DNA of 64,000 bases from an uncultured Nitrospiraceae bacterium (GTDB taxonomy: Bacteria; Nitrospirota; Thermodesulfovibrionia; Thermodesulfovibrionales; Dissulfurispiraceae), in contig CAVPIW010000005.1 of assembly GCA_963705105.1 (NCBI GenBank), forward strand, positions 576,001 to 640,000, written 5' to 3'. The notes beneath the pieces were generated by a model. The model was not told the origin of the DNA, ran no database searches, and saw nothing but the letters and a program-made list of their open reading frames with translations. This document shows, one piece after another, positions 6,828 to 63,120 of the stretch. Both the position numbers and the translations under genes were made by a program. Numbering within the stretch: position 1 is the first letter of the stretch; each line of letters starts with the position of its first letter.

Positions 6828-7039
6828 CCTTATCGTTGCAATAGGACATCCGGAAAGGCGGGGCGAAGATGCCGAGAAGCCTTGGTGCTGCGAAACCTTT
6901 GCCTTCCCATACGGATCATGTCAGGCTGACGGTTGATGACACAAAGGGTGGAATCCCGAATGTCCAATTTCAAATGATCATGCTCGCTATCAGCAAGGCC
7001 TTGAGGCACTTTGTCCCGCCTTTTGATGCAACTGGAAGG
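6828..7039. repeat. 212-bp MITE-like element (arms alpha+delta), TTAA target duplication
   Basis: TTAA|CCTTATCGTTGCA...GAAAGGCGGGGCG...GTCCCGCCTTTTGATGCAACTGGAAGG|TTAA. Near-identical reverse-complement copies at 36273, 60784 and 62737. Confidence 0.9.
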
Positions 7040-7084
7040 TTAAAAGATCTCAAACCGGAGCCTGTGAGCGTTCGTATGTGCGCT

Positions 7085-7882
7085 TCACTCCGGTTGCATA
7101 TCCTGCTGCGCTTTTTCCTCATAAGCAGGAAGGCGAAATGAAAAACACGCCCCGCCTCCCAATGTGCTCTCGCACCACAGTTCCCCGCCGAGCTTATCGA
7201 TCAGCTCCTTGGCCACCGCCAACCCGTAGCCGCTCGAAGATTCGTCCCCCGTGGGTGCGGAGCTGAGCCGGACACCCCGCTGAAACAGCTTCGCCTGGTC
7301 CTCCTCGCTCAATCCCGGTCCTTCATCGCAGACGCTGCACGCCACACCTGTCACTTCCCGTCGCACCTGAACCCGTATTTTCTTTCCGGGAAAAGAATAC
7401 TTCACGGCGTTTGACAGAAGGTTGTCCAAGACAGCCGACACGGCCACGGGATCTGTCCATACCGGAGGAATGTCGGCATTGAGCTCACAGGAAATGGAGA
7501 TATTCTTGCGGTCAGCGATGCGCCGGTAATAATTGCATACCCGCTGCACCAACGGAGGCAAATCCCACTTCAGGAACCGGAATGCGGCATCCGTGGGTGC
7601 CGACAACGTTATCAACTGGCTGACCGTGTGACGCATCAACTCCGTCACATGGGACAGTCCTTCAAGCCATTTTCGGATCTGGGGATCCGGGTTGTCTGTC
7701 AATGATATGAGGAGTAATTCAACGGTGGCCCCTGCGATCGTCAAATAGTTATTGAGTGCATGCGCCGAAAAACCGACCACTCCCGGATCGAAAGCCGGTA
7801 TCTTCTCGATCTCGCGCAGCGCCTGCTCCAGATCGGCCTGTGCCCTCAGGATCGATGCAGAAGCATGCTCTTTCTCGTTCAT
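7085..7882 (-). CDS. Soluble sensor histidine kinase (HisKA-like + HATPase_c, no input domain)
   Basis: H-box-like AHALNNYL, N-box NLLSNAVKYS, G1 DEGPG, G2 GYGLAVAK, GGGACFSF. Confidence 0.85.
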   Translation of the reverse strand: MNEKEHASASILRAQADLEQALREIEKIPAFDPGVVGFSAHALNNYLTIAGATVELLLISLTDNPDPQIRKWLEGLSHVTELMRHTVSQLITLSAPTDAAFRFLKWDLPPLVQRVCNYYRRIADRKNISISCELNADIPPVWTDPVAVSAVLDNLLSNAVKYSFPGKKIRVQVRREVTGVACSVCDEGPGLSEEDQAKLFQRGVRLSSAPTGDESSSGYGLAVAKELIDKLGGELWCESTLGGGACFSFRLPAYEEKAQQDMQPE

Positions 7883-8100
7883 GTCCCCCCCAAACTGCCT
7901 CTCTGTACCATTAGTATATACCGCCGTTTGGTAAGAGTGATGCCCTTAGGATCACGGAAACAGCCTCTGCCGTTAATTTTATCACAGGTTCGGGCAAACT
8001 GTTTCGTGAAGGACGGAAATCGCACCAAATTGCAGCATCCGACAAAAACACCGTCTTCCGTCAAAGCAAAGAGCGTCATCTCACGCCTCACCGTCATACC

Positions 8101-9000
8101 TCAGCATGCTCCTTTTCCGGAGCTGAGAACGAGGCATTCCTCCTCCGCATCGTCAGGAAGAAGGAATGCCGTTCTGTCCAGCTCATTGCCCGTGATGTCA
8201 CGGTAGACGAGCTCATCCGTTTCGAGGTCGTATTCCGGTATGGAGGGGTCCTGCCATCGCGTCTGGAAATGCTGGTACAGGGGGTTGTAAAAGCTTCCGG
8301 GATTATTGCCGTGCTTGAAGACGAACTCCGGCATCTGCCGGACATCGAGGCCGGGGTGATAGTGGCGCACATAGAGGTAGTCGCCCAGTATGGCAAGTTT
8401 GAACAGGGGGGCGTCCCGGTAGAGCTTGAGCCTGATGTTTTTCTGGATTGCCTTCAGGCCCTTGAGAAACCCGATGCTCTTCCGGATCTGTTCCTGGAAA
8501 CCCTCCTCCATGGCCGTCAGGCTCCGGGCCCGGGCGCGCGCTCCCTCTCCGCTCGGGTCGAGGAGCATGATCCTCGCCTCGCGGCAGGTGTGCAGGACAC
8601 GGTGCAGGTCTCCTGCGGGATCGGCAAGGGTCCTGTAGCCAGTGGAACCGATGATCATCACATCCCTGCCGAAGCCTTGCTTCTCTCTCAGTTTCTTCTG
8701 TCTCGTCTGTGTGAAAGGCCCGCGGACTGACGATGAAAAGACGAGCCCGGCCCCTCTCGCTATCCCGGACATGAGCCTGTCCTTCCAGCTCCTTCCCAGG
8801 TAGTTGAAAAACAGGATCAGGGTGACGGCCAGCGCGATCTCGACGGAAATGAGAAAGACCTTCTGGCTCTCGACAAAGGACCAGTACAGGAGGAATTTCC
8901 TCGCGAGAAAAGCGACGGCGGAGGGCAAGGAAAGTGCTATACCGGCGCTGAGAACGACGATGACGACATGATGCAATATCTGAAATAAATTTTTCAGCAT
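8101..9000 (-). CDS. Membrane-anchored hypothetical protein (2 TM + DUF5919/PLD-like-looking domain)
   Basis: 299-aa ORF with GAGG RBS, two hydrophobic segments, then RIMLLDP...IRLKLY..PLFKLAILGDYLYVRHY...W pattern. Confidence 0.65.
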   Translation of the reverse strand: MLKNLFQILHHVVIVVLSAGIALSLPSAVAFLARKFLLYWSFVESQKVFLISVEIALAVTLILFFNYLGRSWKDRLMSGIARGAGLVFSSSVRGPFTQTRQKKLREKQGFGRDVMIIGSTGYRTLADPAGDLHRVLHTCREARIMLLDPSGEGARARARSLTAMEEGFQEQIRKSIGFLKGLKAIQKNIRLKLYRDAPLFKLAILGDYLYVRHYHPGLDVRQMPEFVFKHGNNPGSFYNPLYQHFQTRWQDPSIPEYDLETDELVYRDITGNELDRTAFLLPDDAEEECLVLSSGKGAC

Positions 9001-9069
9001 GAGTACCTCTTTTTCTTTGTTGTTGCTGTGAAGGCGGGGGCGAAGCGCCCCGCGGGGAGAAAGAAGATG

Positions 9070-9423
9070 TCAGGAAAGCGCGATGAGTGCCATGACGAGG
9101 GAAAGCGCGAGTTCCGCTCCGGCGCTCCCGCTTTCCCGTTCTATCCGGCTGCAGAGGGAACCGATAAGCCTGAGATCGTCGTCACTCAGGGAGTTGAGTT
9201 TCTCGTGCACCTTTTCGATGAGGCGTCTGTCTCCGATCCTGACTTCGAGGATCGAAAGGATTTCGGCTATGCTGTCTTTCGACGCTGACAGTATGTGGGT
9301 TTCCGCTACGATGTGCGCAGCGCCCCTTGCGAGGGCCTCTGGTGCATGAATGGCGAATGCGAGCATGATCACCAATAGACACTTTAGAAGAATCTGAAAG
9401 AGATGATGAGATTTATTTCTCAT
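9070..9423 (-). CDS. Small exported hypothetical protein
   Basis: 117-aa ORF with GGAGG RBS, signal peptide (ALA) and hydrophobic C-terminus. Confidence 0.7.
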   Translation of the reverse strand: MRNKSHHLFQILLKCLLVIMLAFAIHAPEALARGAAHIVAETHILSASKDSIAEILSILEVRIGDRRLIEKVHEKLNSLSDDDLRLIGSLCSRIERESGSAGAELALSLVMALIALS

Positions 9424-9473
9424 GGTACCTCCCTTTTCTAACTATATCCTGAATACGACTTCAGCAATTATAA

Positions 9474-9488
9474 GCAATATGCATGCCA
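9474..9488 (-). promoter_or_regulatory. Sigma54 (-24/-12) promoter
   Basis: Minus strand TGGCATG-CATA-TTGC, about 50 nt upstream of the 9423 start. Confidence 0.75.
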
Positions 9489-9541
9489 GATAGGCATTGT
9501 CCATACATAATTAGAGCCTGTCCATAAAGTAACCTTCATCT

Positions 9542-9612
9542 GTTATGCCCGCAACCCCGCACTTGATGCGGGGGCGTCGGGAATCCTTCTGAAAGAACGA
9601 AGCCGGAATGAC
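9542..9612. repeat. GTCATTCCGG-type REP-like palindrome (copy 1)
   Basis: GTTATGCCCGCA...GCGTCGGGAATCCTTCTGAAA...AAGCCGGAATGAC; related to the reverse complement of 59489-59581. Confidence 0.65.
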
Positions 9613-9836
9613 ATACAAACTGCAACTTCCTGAGTTTATAAACAATTTGAGATGATTTTTTACCTGTGATGTAAAACCTGTCCACATAGACAGTAATCTG
9701 GTCATTCCGGTTTAAGCGTACTCCATCAGTAAAAGGACGCTCTTGTCGGATGAACCAGAAATTTGCCTGCAGATGTATATATTTTCATACACTCCGGGGC
9801 GGTCAAAATATCTGCTGCCGATCGTCGCTTTGCAGA

Positions 9837-10304
9837 TCACCCCAGGGGGATGATTTCGGCGGTGACGCCGTTTCCCCTGACCCTGAGCAGTGCCAGGGTG
9901 ACGGGCAGGCGGAACCGGCGGGGGCCGGCGCTTCCCGGGTTCAGGTAGAGGACGCTGTTGCGGGAGAAGATGGCGGGGCGGTGTGAGTGGCCATAAATGA
10001 CGGCGCTGAATCCCGATACGGACGGATTAAGGTCGAGGTCGCCGATGTCATGGAGCACATAGAGCATGACGTCGCCGACCGTGACCGTCTCCGTCAGGGG
10101 GAGATCGCGGGACCACATCATGCTGTCCATATTCCCTCTTACCGCCACGACGGGGGCGATTTTTCTCAGGCCTTCGAGGATCTCCGGCGAGCCGATATCC
10201 CCGGCGTGGAGGATCGTCTCGACACCCTTCATCGCGGCGATGGCCTCGGGGCGCAGGAGTCCGTGCGTGTCGGAGATGACGCCGATCAGATGTTCCTGTT
10301 CCAT
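9837..10304 (-). CDS. YfcE-family metallophosphoesterase
   Basis: GVISDTH, HAGD, VRGNMD, GHSH, NPGS motifs. Confidence 0.93.
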   Translation of the reverse strand: MEQEHLIGVISDTHGLLRPEAIAAMKGVETILHAGDIGSPEILEGLRKIAPVVAVRGNMDSMMWSRDLPLTETVTVGDVMLYVLHDIGDLDLNPSVSGFSAVIYGHSHRPAIFSRNSVLYLNPGSAGPRRFRLPVTLALLRVRGNGVTAEIIPLG

Positions 10305-10389
10305 AGGCGGACCGGAATATTATACGGGAAAGTCTTAGTATCTGAAAGCAGGTCATTTTCTGCTAAAATATACGATGTGTTCCACCGTC

Positions 10390-11226
10390 ATGCGCAGGTT
10401 CCTCTACCGGTCCGTCGGTGCGCTGGCAATGCTTGCCACCCTGTGCACGGCGCCTGCCTATTCCCATGAAACCATTAAGATAGGCAGCATCGGCGCCGCC
10501 GCGGGTATGATGAAAACCGTCTCCCGGGAGTTCGAAAAACACCACCGCACGATCAAAGTCAAGGTTCTCCCGATCCCGGACCCCTCGGGCGGGATCCAGG
10601 CTGTGTCGGAGAATGCGATCGACATCGGGGTGACGTCCCGCTCCCTCCGGGGGGATGAGAAGAAACGGGGACTTGTCGCCGTTCTCTTTGCCAGGACGCC
10701 TCTCATGCCCGTCTCGAACAGGGATGTCGGGATCAAGGGATTGAAGACCCACGAACTGGTGAGCATCTACCAGGGAAAAACCCTGAAGTGGCCGAACGGC
10801 AAGCAGGTGCGCCTCATCATGAGACCCGCTGCGGAGACCGACATGCAGCTCATCAGGAAGATTTCGCCGGAGATGAGGGCCGCCGTCGACAACGCCCTTT
10901 CCCGGCCGGGGATGAATCTGGCACGGACCGATCAGGACAATCTGAAAAAACTGGAGCGGGTGTCCGGCGCCGTCGGATTTGCGACATTGTCGCAGGTACT
11001 CTCGGAAGGGCGGAGCGTCAGCCCTCTTGCCTTCAACAGCCTGGCCCCGACCGTCGAAGCCGTTGCAAAGGGGCGTTATCCCGTCGTGAAGTCCTTTTAT
11101 TTTGTGAGGAAAAAAGATCCTTCCCCTGAGGAGCGGGCGTTCGTCGCTTTTCTCCTGTCGGCGAAGGGCAGGAAGATCCTGAAGGAAGCGGGCTGCGCGC
11201 CCGCTCCGGGAGCGCCGGAGAGGTAA
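10390..11226 (+). CDS. PstS-like (PBP type 2) periplasmic substrate-binding protein
   Basis: Signal peptide; SGGIQAV..AIDIGVTSRSL, IYQGKTLKWPNG, GRYP motifs. Confidence 0.85.
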   Translation: MRRFLYRSVGALAMLATLCTAPAYSHETIKIGSIGAAAGMMKTVSREFEKHHRTIKVKVLPIPDPSGGIQAVSENAIDIGVTSRSLRGDEKKRGLVAVLFARTPLMPVSNRDVGIKGLKTHELVSIYQGKTLKWPNGKQVRLIMRPAAETDMQLIRKISPEMRAAVDNALSRPGMNLARTDQDNLKKLERVSGAVGFATLSQVLSEGRSVSPLAFNSLAPTVEAVAKGRYPVVKSFYFVRKKDPSPEERAFVAFLLSAKGRKILKEAGCAPAPGAPER

Positions 11227-11228
11227 TC

Positions 11229-13514: not shown

Positions 13515-13759
13515 TTATACCCGAAGGACCGGCCCGGATAAAAGTGCCCTGTGAATCTTGCAGCTGCATGAAAAGGCGGGGAAATGATGCCACGAAATAT
13601 TGGACAATAGACTTAGTCGGAACAAGGCCAAAAACACAATGACGGGAGCACTGCTCACAGCAATGTTTTCGATGTTTGGTGAACTGCCGGCGCAGCGTTC
13701 CCTTTTCACCGGAACCATGATATCATGTCACTGGGATCTGATAATTTCAAGGAGGCTCT

Positions 13760-15223: not shown

Positions 15224-15235
15224 ACATTCCGTCTC

Positions 15236-15469
15236 CCTTTCTGTTTCATGAAAAGGCGGGGCGAAGCGCTCTGAAAAACAGTGACAGTGTGAGTGACAGT
15301 GTCACTGTCGGTGTCACTGCCGCTGCCTGCGGGAAGGCAGATATGGTTCAGAGCCTTTCCGTCCGAGTGTTCGTGGCCTGGTTATGACCGTCGAATGTTT
15401 TAATGACTCAATGACTTTATGGTGGCGCATACGCCCCGCCTTTCCAGGGAGTGTATTGCAACGATGAGG
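15236..15469. repeat. Modular element (arms gamma+epsilon) with a collapsed solo inner site
   Basis: Matches 47188-47559 except for a precise 138-bp deletion between AGCCTTTCC and AGCCTTCCC. Confidence 0.88.
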
Positions 15470-15559
15470 TAACATTGCCATCGGGAAGGCGAATGACACC
15501 GGTAAGGTTAAGGATTTTTCCCGACACTGACACTCACACTGTTTGCAGAATGATAAGAT

Positions 15560-16606: not shown

Positions 16607-16637
16607 CAGTCTTACCTCAGCGTTCTATACGCCCTCC

Positions 16638-16771
16638 GGGAAGGCCGATATGGTTCAAAGCCTTTCCAATGCGATGAAGAGACATCTTCAGGTGTTCGGC
16701 GTCTGGTGCCTGACGGGCTTTTGTCATCGAATAACACGGCAAAGGGTAGTTTTCACCACATCAGCCTTCCC
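16638..16771. repeat. Free-standing inner (GGGAAGGC-type) element, internally shortened
   Basis: GGGAAGGCCGATATGGTTCAAAGCCTTTCC...TTTTCACCACATCAGCCTTCCC; homologous to 47283-47450 and 56553-56720. Confidence 0.85.
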
Positions 16772-16873
16772 GTCCCGGTGTTCGTGGCCTTGTTCCGAAT
16801 GACGTCTGACGACTGCCGATCGACGACGACAACTGATGTGTTGACGCATTTCTATCCCGCCTTTGCCGAAGTG

Positions 16874-19627: not shown

Positions 19628-20130
19628 ACGAGGATGGGGTGTGGTTTCTGAAGCATAATTCACGGTTGCCTTGCACGAAAAGACGGTGCAAAACGCTCCG
19701 AAAAACAGTGTCAGTGTCAGTGTCAGTAAAAGGTTCACTTTTCTTCAGACGTCTGCCTGAAATGGTCTGTACGGGAAGGCAGAGGTTTCGCAGCGCCGAT
19801 GCTTTTCGGCTCATACGCCCCGTTTTTCCTGAGATCTCATTGCAGTGATACGGGTTTACCTTATCGTTGCAATGCGCGCCCGGGAAAGGCGGGGCGTATG
19901 CGCCGAAAACCTTGCTGCGGCGACACCTGTATCAAAACGAAAGATGAACTATACGCTAATGGTCGATGACACAAAGAGTGAAATCCTGAAACACGAAGAT
20001 GACGAGGCGTATCGTCGCCTTCAGCAAGGCTTTGAGGCGTTTCGCCCCGCCTTTCCTGATATCTCATGGCGGTGATAAGGGTTTATTATGCGAAGAAATC
20101 ATGCCCCATCCTCGTGTCACATTATTTTTG
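19628..20130. repeat. Composite locus: two tandem modular elements (gamma+alpha; beta+delta at 19859-20081 with TTTA duplication) bracketed by inverted ACGAGGATGGGG modules
   Basis: CAGTGT microsatellite arm, GGGAAGGCAGAGGTTTCGCAGC arm, TTTA|CCTTATCGTTGCA...GATAAGGG|TTTA. Confidence 0.85.
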
Positions 20131-21987: not shown

Positions 21988-22033
21988 TCCTGTCCCGTGT
22001 TTGGTTGCAGCAGGGCGTTCCTGGTACTGTAAA

Positions 22034-22238
22034 CCTTATCGCTGCAATACACTTCCGGGAAAGGCGGGGCGTATGCGCTCTGAAAAAAGTGTCAGTGACA
22101 GTGTGAGTGTCAGGAAGAGGCGCGCATTTCAAACATCGCTTTGAACCGTTGTCTCTTGTGATGGTGCAGGTGTCGCCGCACCAAGGTTTTCGGCGCATAC
22201 GTCCCGCCTTTCGGTCGGGCGTTATTACAACGGCAAGG
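22034..22238. repeat. Modular element (arms gamma+beta)
   Basis: CCTTATCGCTGCA...GAAAGGCGGGGCGTATGCGCTCTGAAAA...CAAGGTTTTCGGCGCATACGTCCCGCCTTTC; its core is the reverse complement of about 25905-26061. Confidence 0.88.
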
Positions 22239-25884: not shown

Positions 25885-26190
25885 CCTGATCGTTGCATAT
25901 GATCTCCGGAAAGGCGGGGTGTATGCGCCGAAAACCTTGCTGCGGCGACACCTGTACCATCACAAAAGACACCGGTTTAAAGCGATGTTTGAAATGCGCG
26001 CCTCTTCCTCACACTCACACTGTCACTGGCACTTTTTTCAGAGCGCTTTGCCCCGCCTTTCGGCGCATCTGCCAAAATGGTCCTCATCATCGCATTGGAA
26101 AGGCTTTGAACCATATCTGCCTTTCCGGAGGCAACGTCGCTATCAATAAGGCTTCGAGGCATTTCGTCCCGCCTTCTCATGTAACCGCCA
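25885..26190. repeat. Composite modular element (beta+gamma, then inner-site+delta)
   Basis: Starts right after the rmuC TAA (TAAA|CCTGATCGTTGCA); contains GGAAAGGCTTTGAACCATATCTGCCTTTCC. Confidence 0.85.
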
Positions 26191-26193
26191 ATT

Positions 26194-26229
26194 AAAGAGG
26201 GCGGCTCAGTCAGATTGAAGAGCCGCCCT
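26194..26229. terminator. Intrinsic terminator-like hairpin
   Basis: AGGGCGGCTC...GAGCCGCCCT, with TCTTT following on the minus strand. Confidence 0.6.
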
Positions 26230-26480
26230 GTCGACTATGGCAGCGAGTCCTCCGGGGGGTCGTATGCACGCAAGAAATACCCTTCAATGAGGGGAAGATG
26301 ATCGTGTGTCCTTCCCGAGCCCTCCCAGCACTGCGACAGACTACCACAGGTTTCTTTCAGTCATAACGGCGTCCCCGCCCCGTGATGATCCCGACCGCAC
26401 CTCGTCCCATTCACCGGGATCCGGACTGCGGGGCCGCGCTTACCTATGTTATCGTCACTGCCCCCGGAAACTTGATTTTA

Positions 26481-26915
26481 ACTCCTCGTTGCATACTCGT
26501 TCGGGAAAGGTGGGAAAAGGCGCCACTCACTCCGGCGGGAAGGCTGATGTGGTGAAAAGCCTATCCGCGAAGATACCTTGTTCATCCCCAGATCACCTTT
26601 TTCCGTAGTCCATTGATAGGAAGAGCCCGTAAGGCAACAGGCGCTGAACACCCCGATATGCACACCCATAGGCCCGACCGAATGGCGCGGTGAAGCGCCG
26701 AAAAGCATCGGTGCTGCGAAACCGCTGCCGTCCCGCTGAGTGTATGTAAGCAAAACTGTTGATGATACAGAGGATGAACTCTTCAACAAACAATAATAAA
26801 TAATCATGCTCGCTATCAGCGAGGCGTTGAGGCGCTTTGCCCCGCCTTTCGGCGCATCTGCCAAAATGGTCCTCATCATCGCATTGGAAAGGCTTTGAAC
26901 CATATCTGCCTTCCC
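26481..26915. repeat. Triple-nested locus: outer end, inner 168-bp element (26537-26915), ~211-bp alpha+delta insert
   Basis: Compared with 56553-56720, the extra ~211 bp sit between GATATG and CTCATCATCGCATTGG. Confidence 0.85.
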
Positions 26916-26931
26916 GTCAGAACATGGTTCG

Positions 26932-29754: not shown

Positions 29755-29890
29755 ACCATCTCCTTTCGTTATCATAAGTCTACCCTACTGCTGGAACACG
29801 CCCTCCGGAAAAGCGGGACGTAGATGCCACAGAAACAGCGGATAATAGACAGTAGTCAGTAGTCACAGGCACTGACCACCCTGATATGTA

Positions 29891-30218
29891 CATATCGCTT
29901 CATACACTCTCCGGAAAGGCTGGGTGAACGCGCCGAAAAGCATCGGTGCTGCGACACCGCTGCCGTCCCATGCAGAGCATGCAAGGGTGACTGTTGATGA
30001 TACAAAGGATGAAAACTTTAAAATCCAATAATAAACAATCATTCTCGCTATCAGCGAGGCTTTGAGGCGCTTCGCCCTGCCTTTCCACATATCTGCCGAA
30101 ATGTCTCATCATCGCATTGGAAAGGCTTTGAACCATATCTGCCTTCCCGCAGGCATCGGCAGTGACACTGACACTGTCACTGTTTTTCAGAGCGCTTCGC
30201 CCTGCCTTTCCATGCAGG
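29891..30218. repeat. Composite modular element (alpha+delta, then inner-site+gamma)
   Basis: CCGAAAAGCATCGGTGCTGCG, TCGCTATCAGCGAGGCTTTGAGG, GGAAAGGCTTTGAACCATATCTGCCTTCCC, ACACTG repeats. Confidence 0.85.
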
Positions 30219-30226
30219 GTATAGCC

Positions 30227-30970: not shown

Positions 30971-31245
30971 CCTCTCGGTTGCGTGAAGAGGCGGGGCGAA
31001 TGCGCTCTGAAATACAGTGTCAGTGACAGTGTGTGTGTCAGCAAAAAGTTCACCTTTTTCAGCCGTCGGCCTGAAATAGCTTCATCGATGTCGGGCCGTT
31101 CGGGGAACGGCTCCTACAGTAATCCACTCTTTGTGTCAAAGACCACCGGTGTATAGTTCGTCTGCCCTTTTGATACAGGTGTCGGCGCAGCAAGGTTTTC
31201 GGCGCATACACCCCGCCTTTCCGGAACGCGTATGCAACGATACCG
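30971..31245. repeat. Modular element (gamma+beta, long core) containing a GTAG-type REP at 31093-31117
   Basis: Reverse complement of the outer element at 62659-63120; includes the reverse complement of GTAGGAGCCGTTCCCCGAACGGCCC. Confidence 0.88.
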
Positions 31246-34349: not shown

Positions 34350-34408
34350 TTTAAGTCATGTGGCCAAAATTGGGGATTGATACAGAAACGAAAGGAGGTG
34401 ATTCAAGA

Positions 34409-34921
34409 GTGAAGAAAGGTTTCGCATTGATCGTTGCTATTCTTTTTGCATTCTCAATGACTGCAGTGTCATTCGCAGCCGAGAAGCCCGCGGCAGCGCC
34501 GGCTCCTGCTCCTGCTGAGAAGAAGGCGGCAGCCCCTGCTGAGAAGAAGGCGGCAGCCCCTGCCGAGAAGAAAGCCCCTGCGAAGAAGCATCAGGTGACC
34601 GGTGAAGTTGCAGCAGTCGACGCAGCAGCTAACTCCATCACCATCAAGGGGAAGAAGGGTGACGTCGTTATCTCCGCAGACGCGAAGATGCTCGCAGACG
34701 TGAAGGTTGGTGACAAGGTCGTCGCCAAGTACGAGGAGAAGGACGGAAAGAACGTTGCCAAGAGCGTAAAGAAGTCCGCCGCGAAGGCAGAGAAGAAGGC
34801 CGAGCCGAAGAAGGCCGAGCCTGCAAAGGCTGAGCCGAAGAAGGCCGAGCCCGCAAAGGCTGAGCCGAAGAAGGCCGAGCCCGCACCTGCTGCCAAGCCG
34901 GCTGAACCTGCCAAGAAATAG
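34409..34921 (+). CDS. Exported Ala/Lys/Pro-rich protein with a central small beta (CusF/DUF5666-like) domain
   Basis: GGAGG RBS, GTG start, signal peptide (SFA-AE), APAEKK and AEPKKAEPAK repeats, VTGEVAAVD...VKVGDKV core. Confidence 0.8.
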   Translation: MKKGFALIVAILFAFSMTAVSFAAEKPAAAPAPAPAEKKAAAPAEKKAAAPAEKKAPAKKHQVTGEVAAVDAAANSITIKGKKGDVVISADAKMLADVKVGDKVVAKYEEKDGKNVAKSVKKSAAKAEKKAEPKKAEPAKAEPKKAEPAKAEPKKAEPAPAAKPAEPAKK

Positions 34922-36271: not shown

Positions 36272-36272
36272 A

Positions 36273-36484
36273 CCTCTTAGTTGCATGGAAAGGCGGGACA
36301 AATTGCCTCAAAGCCTTGCTGATAGCGAGCATGATCATTTGAAATGGGACATTGAGGATTCCACCCTTTGGTTCATCAACCGTGAGGCTGAAATGATCCG
36401 TATGGGAAGGCAAAGGTTTCGCAGCACCAAGGCTTTTCGGCATCTTCGCCCCGCCTTTCCTGATAACCTATTGCAACGATAAGG
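36273..36484. repeat. 212-bp MITE-like element (delta+alpha)
   Basis: Reverse-complement homologue of 6828-7039, inserted immediately after the dapL TAA. Confidence 0.9.
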
Positions 36485-36498
36485 TAACCATTCTGTAC

Positions 36499-37345: not shown

Positions 37346-37348
37346 CTA

Positions 37349-37691
37349 TACAGTGTCAGTGACAGTGTGAGTGTGAGTGAAAGGATTACAGAGGCGTCGA
37401 GCACCAGGAACTTTTCGGCATCCTGGCGCCGCCCTTCCGGATGTCCTGTTGCAATGCACTTCCGGGAAAGGCGGGGCGTATGCGCCGAAAACCTTGCTGC
37501 GGCGACACCTGTATCAAAACGAGAGATGAACTATACGCCAATGGTCGATGACACAAAGAGTGGAATCCTGAAACACGAGGCTGACGAGGCGTATAGTCGC
37601 CTTCAGCAAGGCTTTGAGGCGCTTCGCCCCGCCTTTTCATGCAACAGAAAGGTTTACAGTGTCAGTGAGAGTGTGAGTGTGAGTGAAAGGA
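37349..37691. repeat. Modular element (partial alpha end; beta+delta) flanked by 37-bp direct repeats
   Basis: TACAGTGTCAGTGA(C/G)AGTGTGAGTGTGAGTGAAAGGA at 37349-37385 and 37655-37691; core nearly identical to 19865-20055. Confidence 0.88.
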
Positions 37692-37790
37692 ATATATTCT
37701 CAGGCATAGCGCACCCAAAGGGCACAAAATGAAACAGGGGTAGCGGCAGGAAAGGGAGTCTCTCCCTATGGGTGTATGCGAGCGTGAGCA

Positions 37791-47187: not shown

Positions 47188-47559
47188 CCTTTCTGTTGCA
47201 TGAAAAGGCGAGGCGAAGCGCTCTGAAAAACAGTGACAGTGTGAGTGACAGTGTCAGTGTCGGTGTCACTGCCGCTGTCTGCGGAAAGGCAGATATGGTT
47301 CAGAGCCTTTCCAATGCGATGATGAGACATCTCAAGGTGTTCAGCGCCTGTTGCCTGACGGGCATTTGGTATCAATAGACACGGCAAGGGGTGGTCTGGG
47401 GATGAACAAGGTATCTTAGCGGAAAGGCTTTTCACCACATCAGCCTTCCCGTCCGAGTGTTCGTGGCCTGGTTATGACCGTCGAATGTTTTAATGACTCA
47501 ATGACTTTATGGTGGCGCATACGCCCCGCCTTTCCCGGGAGTGTATTGCAACGATAAGG
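47188..47559. repeat. Modular element (gamma+epsilon) with nested 168-bp inner element (47283-47450), TTTA target duplication
   Basis: TTTA|CCTTTCTGTTGCATGAAAAGGCG...CGCCCCGCCTTTC...TGCAACGATAAGG|TTTA. Confidence 0.92.
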
Positions 47560-49781: not shown

Positions 49782-49787
49782 GTTGTT

Positions 49788-51500: not shown

Positions 51501-51611
51501 ACAAACCTCCTTTCTCTATTCAGGGATGATCAGCGGTCATCCCCAAAAAAATTTGGTCACCGCCAATGGCGGTGGTTCGAAACGTCTTATGTACAGAAAA
51601 ATGTAAAGTTT

Positions 51612-51626
51612 GCAAATGCCGTGCCC
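51612..51626 (-). promoter_or_regulatory. Sigma54 (-24/-12) promoter for the DUF3373 gene
   Basis: Minus strand GGGCACG-GCAT-TTGC. Confidence 0.7.
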
Positions 51627-51781
51627 CCGTCAAACCGGGGGTCGATCAGTACACCGATTAAGAATTACTATTGAAAAAACAATGTTTTCCCCGGCGCCGC
51701 TCCGGACTGCGCGAAGCGCTGCTGTTTATCCCTCTTAACGATCCTGTAAAGTTAACAGAGTCATACCATATAATACCAGCA

Positions 51782-53656: not shown

Positions 53657-53658
53657 CC

Positions 53659-54256: not shown

Positions 54257-54275
54257 CAGTTCCTCCTTCGGTGGA

Positions 54276-54420
54276 ACGAGGATTGGGCATGATTTCTTCG
54301 CAAAATAAACTACCTCTTCTCTTATGTCTATCAGCCTCATAAACCAATAATAAACAATCATACTCGCAATCAGCGAGGCTCTGAGGCGTTTTGCCCCGCC
54401 TATTCATCCAACGACGGGGT
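54276..54420. repeat. Degenerate modular element (ACGAGGAT module + delta arm + outer end)
   Basis: ACGAGGATTGGGCATGATTTCTTCGC; CAATAATAAACAATCATACTCGCAATCAGCGAGGCTCTGAGGCGTTTTGCCCCGCC. Confidence 0.75.
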
Positions 54421-55623: not shown

Positions 55624-55812
55624 ACCCTTCTCCTCCTTCAGGATTACAGTATACCATCTTATGGACGCAATTCAAGAAAAAGACCGTGTCAGTGTCAGTG
55701 TGAGTGTCAGCCCGGGGCTCTATGAGCGTTTTGACGTCCGGTAGGTTCTATGGCAAAAACGGCCCTGTCCTGCTAAACTATCGGAAGATTTCAATCCCAT
55801 CAAGGAGGTTGC

Positions 55813-56403: not shown

Positions 56404-56552
56404 CGATCGACTTATCGACCGGGGTCCTCGTTCCCTCGGGCCCCGGTCATGTTTCAGCGGACTTTCCCCACCGGTGCTATTATTTAAAAAACAGTAGACA
56501 ATAGACAATGGACACCAGGCAAAGACAGGAAGGGGACGAGAAAGGCACCGAC

Positions 56553-56785
56553 GGGAAGGCTGATGTGGTGAAAAGCCTTTCCGCTAAGATACCGTATTCG
56601 TCCCCGGACCACACTTTGCCGTGTCTACCGATACCAGATGCCCGTCAGGCAACAGGCGCTGAACACCTCGATATGTCTCATCATCGCATTGGAAAGGCTT
56701 TGAACCATATCTGCCTTCCCGGAGGCAGTGTCGCCTTCAGCAATGCTTTGAGGGGCTTCCCCACGCCTTTCCATGCAATTGAAAT
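56553..56785. repeat. Intact 168-bp inner element (56553-56720) followed by delta arm and outer end
   Basis: GGGAAGGCTGATGTGGTGAAAAGCCTTTCC...GGAAAGGCTTTGAACCATATCTGCCTTCCC. Confidence 0.9.
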
Positions 56786-56792
56786 GTGAGCG

Positions 56793-58790
56793 ATGGTATT
56801 CGAATTTCTCAAGGACCTCGTCATCATTTTCGGCATCTCCGCCGTTGTCGTGTATACGCTGGGGAGGCTGAGGGTCCCTTCCATCGTCGGCTTCCTCCTT
56901 GCCGGCGTCATCATGGGGCCTCACGGCTTCGGTCTTATCGGGTCCGTCCACGAGGTCGAGGTCTTTGCCGAGATCGGCGTCATCCTCCTCATGTTCACCA
57001 TCGGGCTCGAATTTTCTCTCAAGCACCTCCTGATGCTCAGGACCGCCGTGCTCGGAGGAGGTTTTCTCCAGGTGGCGGCATCGGTCGCCCTGATCGTTGC
57101 TCTCGCCGTCTTCGTCTTCCAGGACACTCTCCGGATCGCGCTCTTCGACGGGGCCCTTGTCGCTCTGAGCAGCACGGCGATCGTCATCAAGCTCCTGATG
57201 GACCGGGCCGAGATCAACTCACCCCACGGCAGGTCGATCGTCGGCATCCTCATCTTCCAGGACCTCTGCGTCGTCCCCTTCATGCTCCTCATACCCATCC
57301 TGGCAGGGACGGGCGGCAGCGCGCAGGACATACTCATCACCATGATCAAGGCCGCCATGGTCATCGGCGCCGTCATCGCCTCGTCCCGGTGGGGAGTCCC
57401 GCACCTCCTGCACCAGGTCGTCCGCACCAAGAGCAGGGAACTCTTCGTGATCACCATCATCCTGCTCTGTATCGGGACGGCGCTCCTCACCTGGGAACTG
57501 GGCCTATCCCTCGCCCTCGGCGCCTTTCTCGCGGGCATCGTCATTTCCGAATCCGATTATGCCGCACAGGCCATTTCCGATGTCGTCCCTTTCAAGGAGA
57601 GCTTCACGGGGCTCTTTTTCATCTCCATCGGGATGTTGATGGACCTGCGGTTTCTCGGGCACAACCTGCATCTCATTCTGCCCGTTGTCATTACCATCCT
57701 TGCTCTTAAAATACTGAGCGGGACCCTTGCCGCTTATGCCATAGGGCAGACGGTGCGACACTCCGTCATGACGGGATTCTATCTCTCCCAGATCGGTGAG
57801 TTCTCTTTCATCCTCGCCCAGTCCGGCAAGGCGCAGGGCCTCATGACGGAAGACCTCTATCAGGTGTTCCTCTCCTCATCGGTGCTGACCATGCTGACGA
57901 CTCCCCTGATGGTCGCCCTGTCGTCTCCCGTGTCGTCATGGCTCGTTTCACGAAAACTCCTCGGCCGTTTCGACCGGTCTCAGCGGGGGGTGGCGAAGGA
58001 CAGCTATCCGAAGAAGAAATCAGGCCATGTCATCATCGTCGGCTTCGGCATCAACGGGAGGAATCTCGCGAGGGTCCTCAGGGAGTCGGAAATCCCCTAC
58101 GTCATTCTTGAACTCAACAGCAACACCGTCAAGGCGATGAAAAAAAAGAGCGAGCCCATTTACTTCGGTGATGGCACAAGCCCGGAGATTCTTCAAAAAT
58201 TGCGCATTCATGCCGCGCGCATGCTCGTTATCGCCATTTCCGATGCTGCGGCGACGCGGAGGATCGTCCAGGTCGCCCGCCGGGAGCATCCGGGGATCCA
58301 GATACTGGTGAGAACGCGCTATGTCGCCGAGGTTGATGACCTGAAGGAGCTTGGGGCGAATGAAGTCATCCCGGAGGAATTCGAGACCTCCGTCGAGATA
58401 TTTTCGAGGGTCCTGAGCCAGTACGGCCTTTCCGGAAATGCCATCAACGATCACGTGGAGAAGGTCAGGAAGGACAGTTACCGCATGCTGAGGGGGCTCG
58501 ATCTGCCCCGGAAGGAACTGGCTGACCACTACGAATTTCTGAAGGGCCTGTCGACCGAAACATACCGGATACCGGAAAATTGTGCGGCTGACGGCCGTTC
58601 GCTCCAGGAGATCCAGCTCCGGTCGCGGACCGGGGCGACGATCATCGCCGTCCAGCGCGCGCTGATGATCTATCAGAACCCTTCTCCCGATTTCGTCTTC
58701 AGGGCCGGGGACATCATCCTGCTCATCGGCGACCGGGAGAGCATTAACGGGGCTATCGACTACATAGGAACCACAGGGAGGAAATCATGA
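56793..58790 (+). CDS. CPA2 (Kef-type) cation:proton antiporter with TrkA-N and TrkA-C domains
   Basis: Many TM segments, AEIGVILLMF.IGLEF, LSSTAIV, ILIFQD, SQIGEF, IVGFGING, TrkA-C tail. Confidence 0.95.
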   Translation: MVFEFLKDLVIIFGISAVVVYTLGRLRVPSIVGFLLAGVIMGPHGFGLIGSVHEVEVFAEIGVILLMFTIGLEFSLKHLLMLRTAVLGGGFLQVAASVALIVALAVFVFQDTLRIALFDGALVALSSTAIVIKLLMDRAEINSPHGRSIVGILIFQDLCVVPFMLLIPILAGTGGSAQDILITMIKAAMVIGAVIASSRWGVPHLLHQVVRTKSRELFVITIILLCIGTALLTWELGLSLALGAFLAGIVISESDYAAQAISDVVPFKESFTGLFFISIGMLMDLRFLGHNLHLILPVVITILALKILSGTLAAYAIGQTVRHSVMTGFYLSQIGEFSFILAQSGKAQGLMTEDLYQVFLSSSVLTMLTTPLMVALSSPVSSWLVSRKLLGRFDRSQRGVAKDSYPKKKSGHVIIVGFGINGRNLARVLRESEIPYVILELNSNTVKAMKKKSEPIYFGDGTSPEILQKLRIHAARMLVIAISDAAATRRIVQVARREHPGIQILVRTRYVAEVDDLKELGANEVIPEEFETSVEIFSRVLSQYGLSGNAINDHVEKVRKDSYRMLRGLDLPRKELADHYEFLKGLSTETYRIPENCAADGRSLQEIQLRSRTGATIIAVQRALMIYQNPSPDFVFRAGDIILLIGDRESINGAIDYIGTTGRKS

Positions 58791-59296
58791 GAATCGAGAA
58801 TGGACGCATGCGGTTTATTGTCCCCGTTGTCTTTGTCTTATCGGTGATGACCTTTTTGACGGAACGCATCTGCGCTGCATCGGAACCGGAGATGTCGAAG
58901 GGTCAGGTCGTCTATGTGCCGGCTTATTCACATATCTATGTGGGCGACAAACCCCTTCAATTCAATCTTGCCGTTACTCTCTGCATCAGAAATACCGATA
59001 TGAGCAGGGACATACGGATCCTGTCGATCGAATACCGCGATTCGAAGGGGAAACTCATCAGGACCTATCTCAAGGATCCCCTGAAGATCGGTCCATTGGC
59101 ATCGGCTGATTTCTTCGTGAAGGAAAGCGACGTGGCCGGAGGAGTAAATGCCCACTTTCTCGTGCAGTGGGCGGCGGGCCAGGAGGTCAACGAGCCGATC
59201 ATAGAAACGATCATGATCGGCGCCCGGTCAGGCCAGGGCATATCCTTCATCGGCAGGGGGAAGGTGATCGGCCCGTCGAAGCCCCTCAAGCCCTGA
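58787..59296 (+). CDS. DUF3124 family exported protein
   Basis: GQVVYVPAYSHIY, TL.IRNTD, D..GG..A.F.V.W, EPIIE..M, QGISF. Confidence 0.88.
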   Translation: MRIENGRMRFIVPVVFVLSVMTFLTERICAASEPEMSKGQVVYVPAYSHIYVGDKPLQFNLAVTLCIRNTDMSRDIRILSIEYRDSKGKLIRTYLKDPLKIGPLASADFFVKESDVAGGVNAHFLVQWAAGQEVNEPIIETIMIGARSGQGISFIGRGKVIGPSKPLKP

Positions 59297-59307
59297 GCTG
59301 AAGTTAT

Positions 59308-59450
59308 ACGAAAATGCGGGGCAAGACGCCTCAACGCCTCCTGAAAGCGGCGCTGTCTCCGGGAAGGCAGATATGGGTCAAAGCCTTCCCGTCTGAATGT
59401 TCTCAATGTGGTTGTGGCCCTTGATTGCGACGAATGACTCAATGACTTGG
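59308..59450. repeat. Degenerate modular element (delta arm, solo inner site, epsilon arm)
   Basis: GAAAATGCGGGGC...GGGAAGGCAGATATGGGTCAAAGCCTTCCCGTC...AATGACTCAATGACTT. Confidence 0.75.
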
Positions 59451-59488
59451 TAACGTGGCAACCAAACAGATGAACCATCCTACGCTTT

Positions 59489-59581
59489 GTCATTCCGGCT
59501 TGTCCGGAATCCTTCTCATTTTCAGAAGGATTGCCGACGCGCGGAGCCTGTCCCGGCTTGACCGGGGCTTGCGGCAATGAC
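59489..59581. repeat. GTCATTCCGG-type REP-like palindrome (copy 2)
   Basis: GTCATTCCGGCTTGTCCGGAATCCTTCT...AGAAGGATT...GCGGCAATGAC. Confidence 0.7.
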
Positions 59582-59626
59582 GGCTTTACAAGTATTCAAT
59601 AGCCGGGTTAATAATGACTGATGTCG

Positions 59627-60754
59627 TCAGATCAGGAGGGCGCCCTTTTCTATAAGGGTGATGGTTTCGCCGTTCTTTGTGGAAAGGCGGACGGTGGGCT
59701 TGAAGAAGACGAAGTCGAGATGAAAGGGTGTCTTGACCTTTCCCCCGAATGAGCTGTTGTCGCCGAGGGCGACGTGAATGGTGCCGAGAATCTTCTCCGA
59801 TTCGAGGATGTTGTCGGGCCGCCTGGCCCTCTCGTTCGTCCCGATGCCGAACTCGGCGATGTTCCGGTTTTCCTCCCGTTCAGCGAGCTTCGATTTCAGG
59901 TATGATGCGAAGGGACCGTCCCCGATGATCTCCCTCGCTGTGCCGTCCTTCACGGACAGCTTTATCGGTGCGGCGAGCTTTTTCGTGGGGGACCATTCGA
60001 GCACAAGCTTCCCGTTCGCCGTGCCCTCGAGGGGCGCGAGGAAGACCTCGCCGGCGGGGAGGTTGCCGAAGGCGCCCGATGCGCTCAGGATGCCCGTATC
60101 GGACAGGGCCTTCCGCTTCTCCTTTGAGAGGGTGAGGCGTGTCCCGTTCGGTGTGCTGATGTCGACGAGGACGGCCTTGTTGACCACTGCCGCGACAGCC
60201 TTCGTCAATTTCTCGAGCTTCCTCCAGTTGACGTTCATGACGCCTTCGAACATCGAGACATCAAATAGGGGCATGCTGGCGTAGCGGCAGCCGCAGATCC
60301 TTGTCAGAAAGTCCCTGAAGCGCGTATGGCTCGTCGAATAGTTGGAGAGGGCGATGACGACATTCGCGGCATCCTTCCGGTGCCGACCGATGAGGGCCTC
60401 AGCAGCCGCCGTCTCCTCTTCGGAGCTTTCCTTCTGCAGGAGGGCGGGCAGGAGCCCTCCCCTTATCAGCTTGTCCACCAGTCTCTCGCCGAAGGCCCTC
60501 CGCCAAAGCTCCTCCGGCGGCTCAACGCCGTGATTGCCCGTCGACGGGTACTCAAGGTAGACGACCTTTTTCGCAAAGGACTTGCCGATCTCGGCGGTCA
60601 GCAGGGCCACGTCCCGCAGCCGCTCCCTGCGGCAGAAGTCGTGTTCCGGGACGATCTCACGGGGTGAAATGGTGTCCGTAAAGACGAGGACCTTCTCATC
60701 CCGTCGCACCCTGAGGTTGGTCGTATAGATGGCCTGAATCGTTTTTGTCATCAT
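59627..60754 (-). CDS. Aminopeptidase (M29 / aminopeptidase T-like)
   Basis: GNLPAGEVF.AP, NIAEFGIGTN, ESEKILGTIHVALGDN, HLD. Confidence 0.88.
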   Translation of the reverse strand: MMTKTIQAIYTTNLRVRRDEKVLVFTDTISPREIVPEHDFCRRERLRDVALLTAEIGKSFAKKVVYLEYPSTGNHGVEPPEELWRRAFGERLVDKLIRGGLLPALLQKESSEEETAAAEALIGRHRKDAANVVIALSNYSTSHTRFRDFLTRICGCRYASMPLFDVSMFEGVMNVNWRKLEKLTKAVAAVVNKAVLVDISTPNGTRLTLSKEKRKALSDTGILSASGAFGNLPAGEVFLAPLEGTANGKLVLEWSPTKKLAAPIKLSVKDGTAREIIGDGPFASYLKSKLAEREENRNIAEFGIGTNERARRPDNILESEKILGTIHVALGDNSSFGGKVKTPFHLDFVFFKPTVRLSTKNGETITLIEKGALLI

Positions 60755-60783
60755 GATGCGGATCTCCCGTTGAGATGTATTGA

Positions 60784-60995
60784 CCTTCCAGTTGCATGAA
60801 AAGGCGGGACAAAGTGCCTCAAAGCCTTGCTGATAGCGAGCATGATCATTTGAAATGGGACATTGGGGATTCCACCCGACCTGTCATCAACCGTCAGCCT
60901 GACATAATCCGTATGGGAAGGCAAAGGTTTCTCAGCACCAAGGCTTTTCGGCATCTTCGCCCCGCCTTTCCGGATGTCCTGTTGCAGCGATAAAG
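60784..60995. repeat. 212-bp MITE-like element (delta+alpha), TTGA target duplication
   Basis: TTGA|CCTTCCAGTTGCA...TGCAGCGATAAAG|TTGA. Confidence 0.9.
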
Positions 60996-61019
60996 TTGAT
61001 AGGCTGCGGCCCGGCGCCG

Positions 61020-62462
61020 TCATGAGAAGACAAGCTCCATCTGCTGCACTTCTCCCTCTTCCTCCTCGGGGAAGAGGATGGGATAGTTGTTGTCGAAGCA
61101 GGCGAAGCAGTAATCCTCCGGATGAGGGATCGTCTGCCTGACTCCCTCCAGGCTCAGGTAGGCGAGGCTGTCGGCGGTGATGTATTTCCTGATCTCCTCC
61201 GTCTTGTGGCTCGATGCGATCAGTTCCTGCCTCGTCGGCGTGTCTATGCCGTAAAAACAGGGGCCGATGGTGGGAGGCGACGATATCCTCATATGCACCT
61301 CCCGGGCGCCGCCCACTTCACGGATCATCTTCACGATCTTCTTGCTCGTCGTTCCCCTGACGATGGAATCATCGACGACGACCACTCTTTTGCCTTTCAG
61401 GAGGTCCCGTATGGGGTTCAGCTTGATCTTGACGCCGAAATGGCGTATGGTCTGCTTCGGTTCTATAAAAGTCCTGCCGATATAGTGGTTTCTGATCAGC
61501 CCGAAATCGAAGGGAATCCTGCTCTCCTCGGAGAAGCCGATCGCCGCGGGAACACCGGAATCAGGCACGGGGATAATAATATCTGCGTCGATGAAAGACT
61601 CCCGCGCAAGTTGTCTGCCGAAATTCTTCCGTACCGTGTTCACACAGTTGTGGCCGAAAATGTAGCTGTCCGGCCTCGCGAAGTAGATGAACTCGAACAC
61701 GCAGTGGGCTTTCCGCAGGCTCGGGATCACCCTGACGGAGTGGAGGCCCTGTTCATTGATGATGACCATCTCTCCCGGCTCGACATCCCTGATATACTCG
61801 GCCCCGATGAGATCGAAGGCGCATGTCTCCGATGCGACGACATAGGCGCCGTCGAGGGTGCCTATCGAGAGGGGCCGCACGCCGTAGGCATCCCTGACCG
61901 CGATCAGCTCCGATTCACGGAGGAAGAGGAGGCTGAAGGCGCCGCTCAGTTGCTCGAGCACCTCCGTTATCCGCCCGTGCGGGTCGTCACGTCTCGACCG
62001 GGCGATCATGTGCAGGATGACCTCGCTGTCCGATGTGGACTGGAAGATGGCGCCCTCCCTCTCGAGCCGTCTCCTGAGATGGTCGGCGTTGGTGAGATTG
62101 CCGTTGTGGCAGAGTGCGATCGTACCGAGGGCGTAAGTTGCGATGAAGGGCTGTACGTTTCTCAGGACACTGCTGCCCGCCGTCGAGTACCTGTTGTGCC
62201 CGATGGCCGAGCTTCCCACAAGCCGTTTCAGCCTCTTCTCGCTGAAGATATCGGCGACGAGCCCCATGGACCGTTCGACAGAGAAGGACCGCCCGTCGGA
62301 GGAACAGATCCCCGCCCCCTCCTGTCCGCGGTGCTGGAGCGCGTAAAGGCCGAGGTAGGTAAGGTTCGCCGCTTCGGGATGGCCGTAAACACCGAAGACG
62401 CCGCACTCCTCGTGGATGTCGTGAAAAAGGCGGTTAATCGTGAAAGGGCAGGATGAATTCAC
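61020..62462 (-). CDS. purF: Amidophosphoribosyltransferase
   Basis: [50 protein letters not shown]. Confidence 0.98.
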
Positions 62463-62610
62463 GGGAACATGCTCTCTCTCGGCATGTGCCAGCAGGGGGA
62501 ATCGTGGATATGTCCGCTCATATGCGAATCATGTTTCAATAATGATGAATGGAAACGCGCCATCTTGCCAGATGTTCTGAAGTATTTTACCATAATACAT
62601 AAGTGGCGTC

Positions 62611-63120
62611 CAAAATAATCTGACACGAGGATAGGGCATGATTTCTTTGCACAACAAGCCTTATCACTGAATGGACACACGGGAAAGGCGGGGCCGGGGT
62701 GAATGCGCCGAAAACCTTGCTGCGGCGACACCTGTACCTTCCAGTTGCATGAAAAGGCGGGACAAAGTGCCTCAAAGCCTTGCTGATAGCGAGCATGATC
62801 ATTTGAAATGGGACGTTGGGGATTCCACCCGACCTGTCATCAGCCGTGAGCCTGACATGATCCGTATGGGAAGGCAAAGGTTTCGCAGCACCAAGGCTTT
62901 TCGGCATCTTCGCCCCGCCTTTCCGGATGTCCTATTGCAACGATAAGGTAAACTATACGCCAATGGTCGATGACACAAAGAGTGGAATCCTGTAGGGGCC
63001 GTTCCCCGAACGGCCCGACATCGATGAAGCTATTTCAGGCCGACGGCTGAAAAAGGTGAACTTTTTGCTGACACTCACACTGTCACTGACACTGTATTGC
63101 AGAGCGTTTCGCCCCGCCAT
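62611..63120. repeat. Nested locus: beta+gamma element interrupted by a 212-bp delta+alpha element (62737-62948); GTAG REP at 62992-63016
   Basis: Outer parts match the reverse complement of 30971-31245; inner part matches 60784-60995. Confidence 0.9.

Follow-up and report, generated by a model that had tools for sequence, protein, structure and literature searches.

Introduction

BOX elements are made of boxA, boxB and boxC, and REPINs and bacterial interspersed mosaic elements (BIMEs) are built of repetitive extragenic palindromic (REP) sequences with a 5' GTAG or GTGG tetranucleotide at their ends. The 64,000-nucleotide stretch analysed here (positions 576,001 to 640,000, forward strand, of contig CAVPIW010000005.1, assembly GCA_963705105.1 of an uncultured Nitrospiraceae bacterium; hereafter the window) carries in many intergenic gaps short non-coding elements in which different arms, named alpha to epsilon, lie within one frame of shared ends. 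The original prediction, made from the letters of the window, described them as a kit of modules reshuffled between these ends that was not recognised as a described family of BIME, REPIN or MITE (miniature inverted-repeat transposable element). Mosaic repeats as such are described in the accessible parts of PMC3184786, PMC3733652 and PMC4133298. According to the available text of PMC2266710, insertion sequences (IS) of the IS701 type make 4-bp duplications and have other end motifs, and the transposition pathway of the IS1380 family is stated to be unknown in the available part of PMC9330008. The accessible text of a MITE census (PMC11602168) mentions neither IS1380 nor Nitrospirota, and no description of IS1380-linked MITEs, or of the palindrome reported below, was found in a literature of limited coverage, with ISfinder and most subscription papers outside it. 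To this extent the prediction stands, but the copies are MITEs with a target duplication and with ends of IS1380 type, and their interiors are decoupled from these ends.

Results

Searching the genome by BLAST with family consensuses revealed about 775 loci, which make up 3.2% of it. A position-weight scan for the end motif gave 1,438 matches of at least 12 bits genome-wide; the control, one mononucleotide shuffle of contig C5, gave 9, 2, 1 and 0 hits per strand at 12, 14, 16 and 18 bits. Among the 1,264 end motifs retained, neighbours face inward in 499 pairs, of which 483 span no more than 500 bp; longer pairs enclose host genes or inserted IS1634, IS3 or ISL3. With 34 end motifs at 19 separate loci covering about 4.0 kb, the window is denser than the contig mean of about 19 ends per 64 kb. 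The elements are short, gene-less and present in many copies, and each end carries a 13-bp terminal motif (both outer ends are present in 265 copies). As the original prediction had stated, no transposase was seen in the window: none of the 34 open reading frames (ORFs) scanned, of 170 listed, matched a transposase family, and an Rfam search of the window returned two tRNAs only and no match to the elements.

An exact 4-bp duplication flanks 135 of the 265 copies compared with 14.9 after flank shuffling, and no other duplication length gave a comparable excess at the same boundary. The target is TNNA. Where the outer base was not T or A it still matched across the element (12/22 and 20/28 cases), indicating a duplication of 4 bp rather than 2. 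Copies often lie nested or in clusters and show deletions at their junctions; four of five nested copies duplicate exactly 4 bp of the host consensus and the fifth (window 62737) lost 13 bp. By crude gene calls, a stop codon lies within the duplication in 33 cases and there is no bias to convergent gaps (54/248 vs 412/2,018). Contigs of other strains (runs X2, X3 and X5) are without 21991-22237, 26477-26930 or 36272-36498 of the window. These three empty alleles lose slightly more than the element; they reflect mobility or loss and are not clean single-TNNA sites. We conclude that the elements are non-autonomous transposons, i.e. MITEs.

Their two ends differ. The short end consists of the 13-bp terminal inverted repeat, 2 nt and an inner repeat, the long end of the terminal repeat, 11-12 nt and the inner repeat, and a GC-rich inverted repeat just inside the ends is common to every copy. 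A start in CC together with a 4-bp duplication pointed to IS1380. Among 30 IS1380 loci from order-mates, three, all of one clade, share the MITE terminal motif, and a wider search yielded 168 loci with the clade transposase, 121 of them with both ends found and 93 distinct. The left ends of these IS read CC-N-CAGTTGCATAAA and the right ends CC-N-ACGTTGCATAAA; the flanks of the 93 are TNNA, exact in 43/85. Scored with the profile of these ends, which is conditioned on the word GTTGCAT that seeded the end search (121/168 loci), 224 of 258 MITE short ends behave as IS left ends and 255 of 272 long ends as IS right ends. The clade proteins match the IS1380 model NF033539 (4/4, the member shown being above the cut-off), their best hits among the nearest plasmid-borne IS1380 are 24.5% identical, and the predicted transposase model resembles the Tn5 and piggyBac transposases (template-modelling score 0.4-0.45). 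The IS left-end word occurs in 13-126 exact copies in ten other genomes of 389 in the class, and the clade transposase is present in the genome with 126 (G494). An inner inverted repeat of at least 10 nt was found in 8 of 93 IS and in 99 of 103 beta-delta MITEs. The exact long-end pattern had no match in the genome and metagenome contigs searched, from which the own genome was possibly excluded; the short-end pattern occurred once in 67 family genomes, and interiors of this genome's type were not found in 30 relatives except for one marginal hit. No transposase of this kind was found in the assembly itself; the MITE ends, duplication length and target are the same as those of an IS1380 clade of its relatives. 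We are highly confident that the outer frame is real and is explained as an IS1380-type MITE superfamily.

Several other identities were rejected. The elements encode no transposase and are not autonomous IS1380; none of the 15 PF01609 loci (ten inspected and five that are IS1634) has these ends by eye; where transposases of IS1634, IS3 and ISL3 lie between ends, they are passengers that have termini of their own; and three candidate units of 0.5-4 kb with these ends and a TNNA duplication resemble host DNA between two MITEs. The elements are not REPINs or BIMEs, as their ends begin with CCTT, REPs are internal passengers only and the flanks of the Y1_Tnp genes are unrelated. A link to REP-associated tyrosine transposases (RAYTs) was not borne out: the genome has four RAYT-like Y1_Tnp genes (L001-L004), flanked by their own long inverted repeats and not by REPs, and read by eye these flanks are unrelated to the elements. 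Origin from a CRISPR leader or repeat was dropped in view of the 4-bp duplication and of the different CRISPR repeat of the genome; its two arrays, C6:516380-517752 and 522936-523599, have near-identical repeats unrelated to the MITE ends. The alpha and beta interiors have no common stable frame, on which ground a coding remnant was rejected, and a group II intron or known RNA was rejected since Rfam gave no match.

The common frame and the five arms of the original prediction are present at the coordinates it gave, and its six pairings are exactly the 2 x 3 table of delta or gamma with alpha, beta or epsilon. The frame, however, is not symmetric: a short end is combined with a long one in 254 of the 265 complete copies, and 11 have two like ends. 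Degenerate copies are frequent in the window, where the strict CCTTnnnGTTGCA pattern is fitted by no more than 5 left ends and 5 right ends; the arm set was incomplete, missing a sixth, heptamer-repeat arm and a shared 170-bp core (K), and the element list missed members at 13556, 16615, 26481, 29783, 54335 and 56489. The short end carries delta or gamma, and the long end alpha, beta, epsilon or the heptamer arm; pairing is two-sided because a copy combines one end of each type. This rule was obeyed automatically by 459 of 476 classified pairs, and the other 17, examined by eye, comprised 13 mislabelled arms and 4 true exceptions. Within it all combinations recur: delta or gamma with alpha or beta gives four, of 152, 117, 91 and 43 copies, and the four left-right combinations are found also for the epsilon and heptamer arms. 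No exchange of halves occurs between the alpha and beta lineages of the 212-bp class (136/136 and 83/83), and gamma left arms combine with many right halves. On the right-half tree, a 96-bp alignment for which the larger count is an upper bound, delta/gamma changes 39 times (shuffled mean, 64) and alpha/beta 3 times. Decay of linkage within single families was weak and uneven, and nearest relatives lie within 50 kb in 16 cases compared with 4.5 expected. No two of the 265 complete copies abut within 6 bp; the window pair 19663/19859, with degenerate ends, is 5 bp apart.

The arms are either homologous to one another or captured repeats. One blueprint underlies alpha, beta, delta and the K core, which are its diverged homologues, and the other arms hold short tandem repeats of a hexamer, heptamer or octamer. 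About 70% of tandem-repeat and GTAG REP matches lie near element ends and the rest elsewhere (GTAG REPs near ends in 44/62 and 13/20 cases; about a quarter of arm tandem-repeat matches away from any end motif). A gamma-beta family with a 235-bp core carries a GTAG-type REP. The K core measures 170 bp (74 of 95 full copies) and is bounded by inverted ends of its own; it can be aligned with the interior of the blueprint, with z of 5.6-9.3 for six of eight representatives and of 1.3 and 3.5 for two; its own terminal repeat is almost absent (3/151, 1/131). K is the interior of a second MITE lineage. Junctions differ between families, IS1634, IS3 and ISL3 copies have inserted into elements, and consensus elements fold strongly (z -2.2 to -8.6).

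An interior twin of at least 97% identity was found for 61 of 225 standard copies (mean divergence 1.6%). For 25 of the 61, the best twin differs at four or more of 40 end bases, which at the interior rate is expected in less than 1%, and 15 of these 25 copies keep their own exact duplication. In 57 of the 59 cases listed, twins have unrelated flanks. End mismatch of at least 4 of 40 nt was observed in 13/13 copies outside the 212-bp class vs 12/48 within it and, counted as independent clusters, in 5/5 vs 2/11 (Fisher p 0.005). Twins identical at both ends occurred in the 212-bp class only (6 copies), and all five nested insertions are of this class. Together, the data show that interiors are decoupled from ends under a two-sided pairing rule, and are read most simply as whole-element transposition of the 212-bp class, with the interiors of other copies entering existing shells, probably by gene conversion. 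As predicted, the family is not one amplified MITE: its members are not deletion derivatives of one consensus. Nor is it a free kit of unrelated modules; the strict pairing, the clonal alpha and beta lineages of the 212-bp class and the homology of arms indicate a superfamily of recombining MITEs.

We then compared the interiors with the IS leaders. In long-leader IS a palindrome, GGAnTTCAC-N5-GTGAAnTCC, begins 84-85 bp from the left end in 42/49; in short-leader IS a related site begins at 106-107 in 30/43. It extends over the GTG start and the ribosome-binding site, and this overlap may inflate the match. The start codon of short-leader IS lies 120-121 bp from the left end in 30/43 despite divergent leaders. 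The position of this palindrome over the translation start hints at possible autoregulation. A matrix built from the IS sites alone and applied to the MITEs placed its best site 85 bp from the short end in 88/103 beta-delta copies and at 84-85 in 24/35 alpha-delta copies (1 when shuffled, in either case). A length of 212 bp puts the palindrome about 106 bp from the long end, and the two distances, 84-85 and ~106, are whole helical turns apart. Six of the ten genomes with the IS left-end word were sampled, and four (G494, G180, G258 and G046) contain MITEs of 211-218 bp with the same motif order. The site stands at 85 and 105-109 in 4/5, 2/3 and 1/1 (213 bp) copies of the first three, and at the expected place in 3/8 of G046, where scores are weak. 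G155 has 204-bp homologues, and one 235-bp copy of G522 has the site 107 from both ends. The inner inverted repeat is unrelated in sequence between lineages, each of which has its own. The IS1380-type MITEs of G180 (loci L293-L320) also took up heptamer tandem repeats, paralleling the gamma, epsilon and heptamer arms. Gamma and K types are without the palindrome at this place; copies can therefore exist without it. As in the ends of piggyBac and piggyBat, the palindrome would be a putative second transposase-binding site, an inhibitory or autoregulatory role being equally possible.

The copies of the window are collected in Table 1.

Table 1. Element copies and related features of the window (window positions)
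Position	Strand	Feature
6828..7039	-	212-bp delta-alpha MITE; long end left, short end right; exact TTAA duplication
6934..6956	.	Palindrome M (GGAnTTCAC-N5-GTGAAnTCC type, degenerate here); 84 bp from short end, 107 bp from long end
13556..13640	+	Remnant, short end and heptamer-type arm; right limit approximate
15236..15469	+	Gamma-epsilon; only a single hybrid palindrome left of K; repeats of hexamer and octamer type; decayed duplication
16615..16813	+	Partly deleted K core directly adjoining a long-type end; missed in the original prediction
19663..19853	+	Gamma-alpha element, degenerate ends
19859..20080	-	Beta-delta, two long ends; interior 99% identical to copies with normal short end
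22034..22238	+	Gamma-beta, two long ends; 21991-22237 absent from contigs of runs X3, X5
25885..26195	-	Beta-gamma element fused with K-delta fragment; approximate right limit
26481..26930	-	Composite, alpha-delta element between right part and left part of K; runs X3, X5 have 7 letters in place of 26477-26930
29783..30225	-	Composite of heptamer arm, alpha-delta element, K fragment, gamma arm; right limit approximate
30971..31245	+	Gamma-beta, 235-bp-core family with GTAG-type REP
36273..36484	+	212-bp delta-alpha MITE at TAA stop codon; 36272-36498 absent from contigs of runs X2, X3, X5
37348..37694	-	Beta-delta (~37441-37652) between hexamer-repeat units and alpha remnant
47188..47559	+	Gamma-K-epsilon, full 170-bp K core; exact TTTA duplication
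54335..54419	-	Isolated delta arm and short end
55679..55711	+	Gamma-type hexamer-repeat unit without MITE ends
56489..56786	-	Delta-K-heptamer-arm element, long end lost
59308..59450	+	Degenerate delta-epsilon, collapsed K; right limit approximate
60784..60995	+	212-bp delta-alpha MITE; exact TTGA duplication; 96% identical to 62737 copy
62659..63118	-	Beta-gamma host element (REP-bearing family, REP ~62992-63016), interrupted by nested copy
62737..62948	+	Nested 212-bp delta-alpha MITE; 13 bp of host element lost at junction

Between the MITE at 36273 and the next start codon stand 14 extra bases (36485-36498), which resemble a remnant second short end; in other strains stop and start are joined directly at this site. 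The degenerate 59308 element is followed at 59470-59600 by an unrelated long palindromic repeat (GTCATT...AATGAC type), similar copies of which occur elsewhere in the genome. An island at 324-5379, beside a tRNA (6012-6084), holds PglZ, DUF6079 and YhcG-type genes and no MITE copy; we take it to be a remnant of a BREX-like defence system. A 15-bp tandem repeat of at least 5 units (34792-34896) lies within the ORF 34358-34921 as a Lys/Ala/Glu/Pro-rich coding repeat. Contigs C1 and C3 of the assembly differ from the remaining genome in GC content (45% and 67%) and in lacking end motifs, and are possibly foreign.

Discussion

We favour, as the probable explanation, a shell-and-cassette model. The shell would derive from a DDE transposase of one IS1380 clade, now missing from the assembly, which acting in trans would have made hundreds of insertions of a MITE of about 212 bp, each duplicating 4 bp of a TNNA site, in many cases a stop codon. 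This MITE retains the 13-17 bp terminal repeats of the IS and the internal palindrome at the IS distance; the transposase would bind the palindrome and do the moving. Recombination between dispersed copies, bounded by the GC-rich inner repeat or by inner shared motifs, would then overwrite interiors as cassettes by gene conversion; as left arms would replace only left arms, the two-sided pairing rule would follow. The gamma, epsilon, heptamer and K interiors, which lost the palindrome spacing and acquired tandem repeats, REPs and the interior of the second MITE lineage, would spread mainly via conversion. More tentatively, and with considerable doubt, we propose that IS1380 transposition needs a helically phased internal palindrome, that the 212-bp MITE fits one site to both ends, its length being thereby fixed across a bacterial class, and that the shells were colonised by non-transposing cassettes spreading through conversion between inner inverted repeats, a gene-less, homing-like second-order parasite.

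A number of observations weigh against the shell-and-cassette model. The cognate IS1380 transposase is absent from an assembly that is 99% complete (PF13701, tblastn and clade profile), and the partner was assigned as a candidate from sequence alone. MITE interiors, motifs aside, have no BLAST similarity to the IS (best E 0.16), and an nhmmer profile of the IS leaders failed to detect MITEs, a result that is uninformative. The seeding of the IS end search, the overlap of the short-leader site with translation signals, the weak scores in G046 and the short right-half alignment count on the same side, as do the empty alleles, which extend beyond the element. No same-site replacement of an interior between strains was seen, and exact duplications are not significantly older in converted shells (19/23 vs 15/25, p 0.12). 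The short end is variable even among twins (14% compared with 1.6% inside), which a mutagenic end reaction could also give.

The main rival holds that hybrids form during transposition: the IS1380 transposase would use the outer ends of neighbouring or nested copies, inner parts would then be deleted between microhomologies, and the hybrids would transpose alone, with no conversion. IS1380 members reportedly misrecognise ends and carry adjacent DNA (available part of PMC9330008), and the common nested copies with junction deletions, the duplications around hybrids (gamma-beta, 41/77) and the copies with two like ends all agree with it. However, twins with matching ends would be expected, and 0 of 5 clusters outside the 212-bp class have them; furthermore, none of the 265 complete copies lies within 6 bp of another, although the window pair with degenerate ends is this close. 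We therefore regard transposition hybrids as unlikely, albeit less so than the explanations that follow. Plain descent, in which subfamilies diverge on a tree with indels and without exchange, accords with the clonal alpha and beta lineages of the 212-bp class and with a delta/gamma label still clustered on the right-half tree. It is largely refuted by the presence of all four left-right combinations for both sets of long-end arms and by twin interiors inside different ends, and is the least credible of all.

Misassembly was also weighed, i.e. that mosaics are artefacts of assembly or polishing in which collapsed repeats were misjoined or homogenised. Such artefacts might be feared in an assembly of 19 contigs with about 775 repeats, whose other-strain runs were compared as contigs. 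Yet the duplications are locus-specific, the assembly is likely to stem from long reads, since 1.4-kb copies of IS256, each with a duplication of its own, lie within contigs, the elements mostly differ mutually by 5-12%, the flanks of twins are unrelated, and four independent runs hold the family at high depth in their contigs, leaving this explanation very improbable. We give just as little credence to a dedicated shuffling system, RAYT/REPIN-like or based on a site-specific recombinase, that builds free modules, perhaps with a host function. The four Y1_Tnp genes, the GTAG REPs near ends and the strong folding of consensus elements speak in its favour; the unrelated repeats around the Y1_Tnp genes, the two-sided pairing, the intact alpha and beta lineages, the junctions that differ between families and the missing bias to convergent gaps speak against it, and the DDE-type duplication and IS1380 ends already contradict it.

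One member of the IS1380 family, ISEcp1, is a main carrier of resistance genes. The hundreds of natural mini-substrates and 92 IS leaders described here point to an end requirement consisting of the terminal repeat and a palindrome at 84-85 or 106-107 bp. Interiors that pass from one dispersed repeat to another without their ends can seldom be measured as they can in this family, and such movement may account for other 'modular' repeats of bacteria.

Compared with known systems, the elements resemble bacterial MITEs such as Correia, RUP, ERIC, Nezha and Chunjie, which in the accessible text of PMC3184786 are likewise short, non-coding and intergenic, with terminal inverted repeats, a target duplication and a long stem, and are moved in trans. 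They differ from these in their IS1380-type ends and 4-bp TNNA target, in the several interchangeable interiors within one pair of ends and in a palindrome that derives from the IS and keeps a set distance from either end. With one clade of the IS1380 family (NF033539; ISEcp1, ISPme1 and TMos in the available part of PMC9330008) they share the terminal motif, the left/right asymmetry, the TNNA duplication and the palindrome; however, they have no transposase gene, the matching clade is distant from the studied members, and the IS have no inner inverted repeat. A 4-bp AT-rich target, asymmetric ends and internal palindromes, there bound by the transposase, are found also in piggyBac and piggyBat (accessible text of PMC11707139), but those are eukaryotic and their palindrome is read by a cysteine-rich domain; the 463-residue model of the IS transposase showed no sign of a separate cysteine-rich domain. 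BrickBuilt of Porphyromonas gingivalis (available part of PMC4596501) similarly holds tandem repeats between a shared leader and tail, in 19 copies and with one 23-nt repeat, whereas here hexamer, heptamer and octamer repeats occupy different arms in hundreds of copies. Lastly, BOX, BIMEs and REPINs have a similar modular or mosaic look (accessible parts of PMC3184786 and PMC3733652), but BIMEs and REPINs are REP-built and RAYT-linked, whereas the GTAG REPs of the present elements are rare inserts, passengers within a frame that is the end of a DDE transposon.

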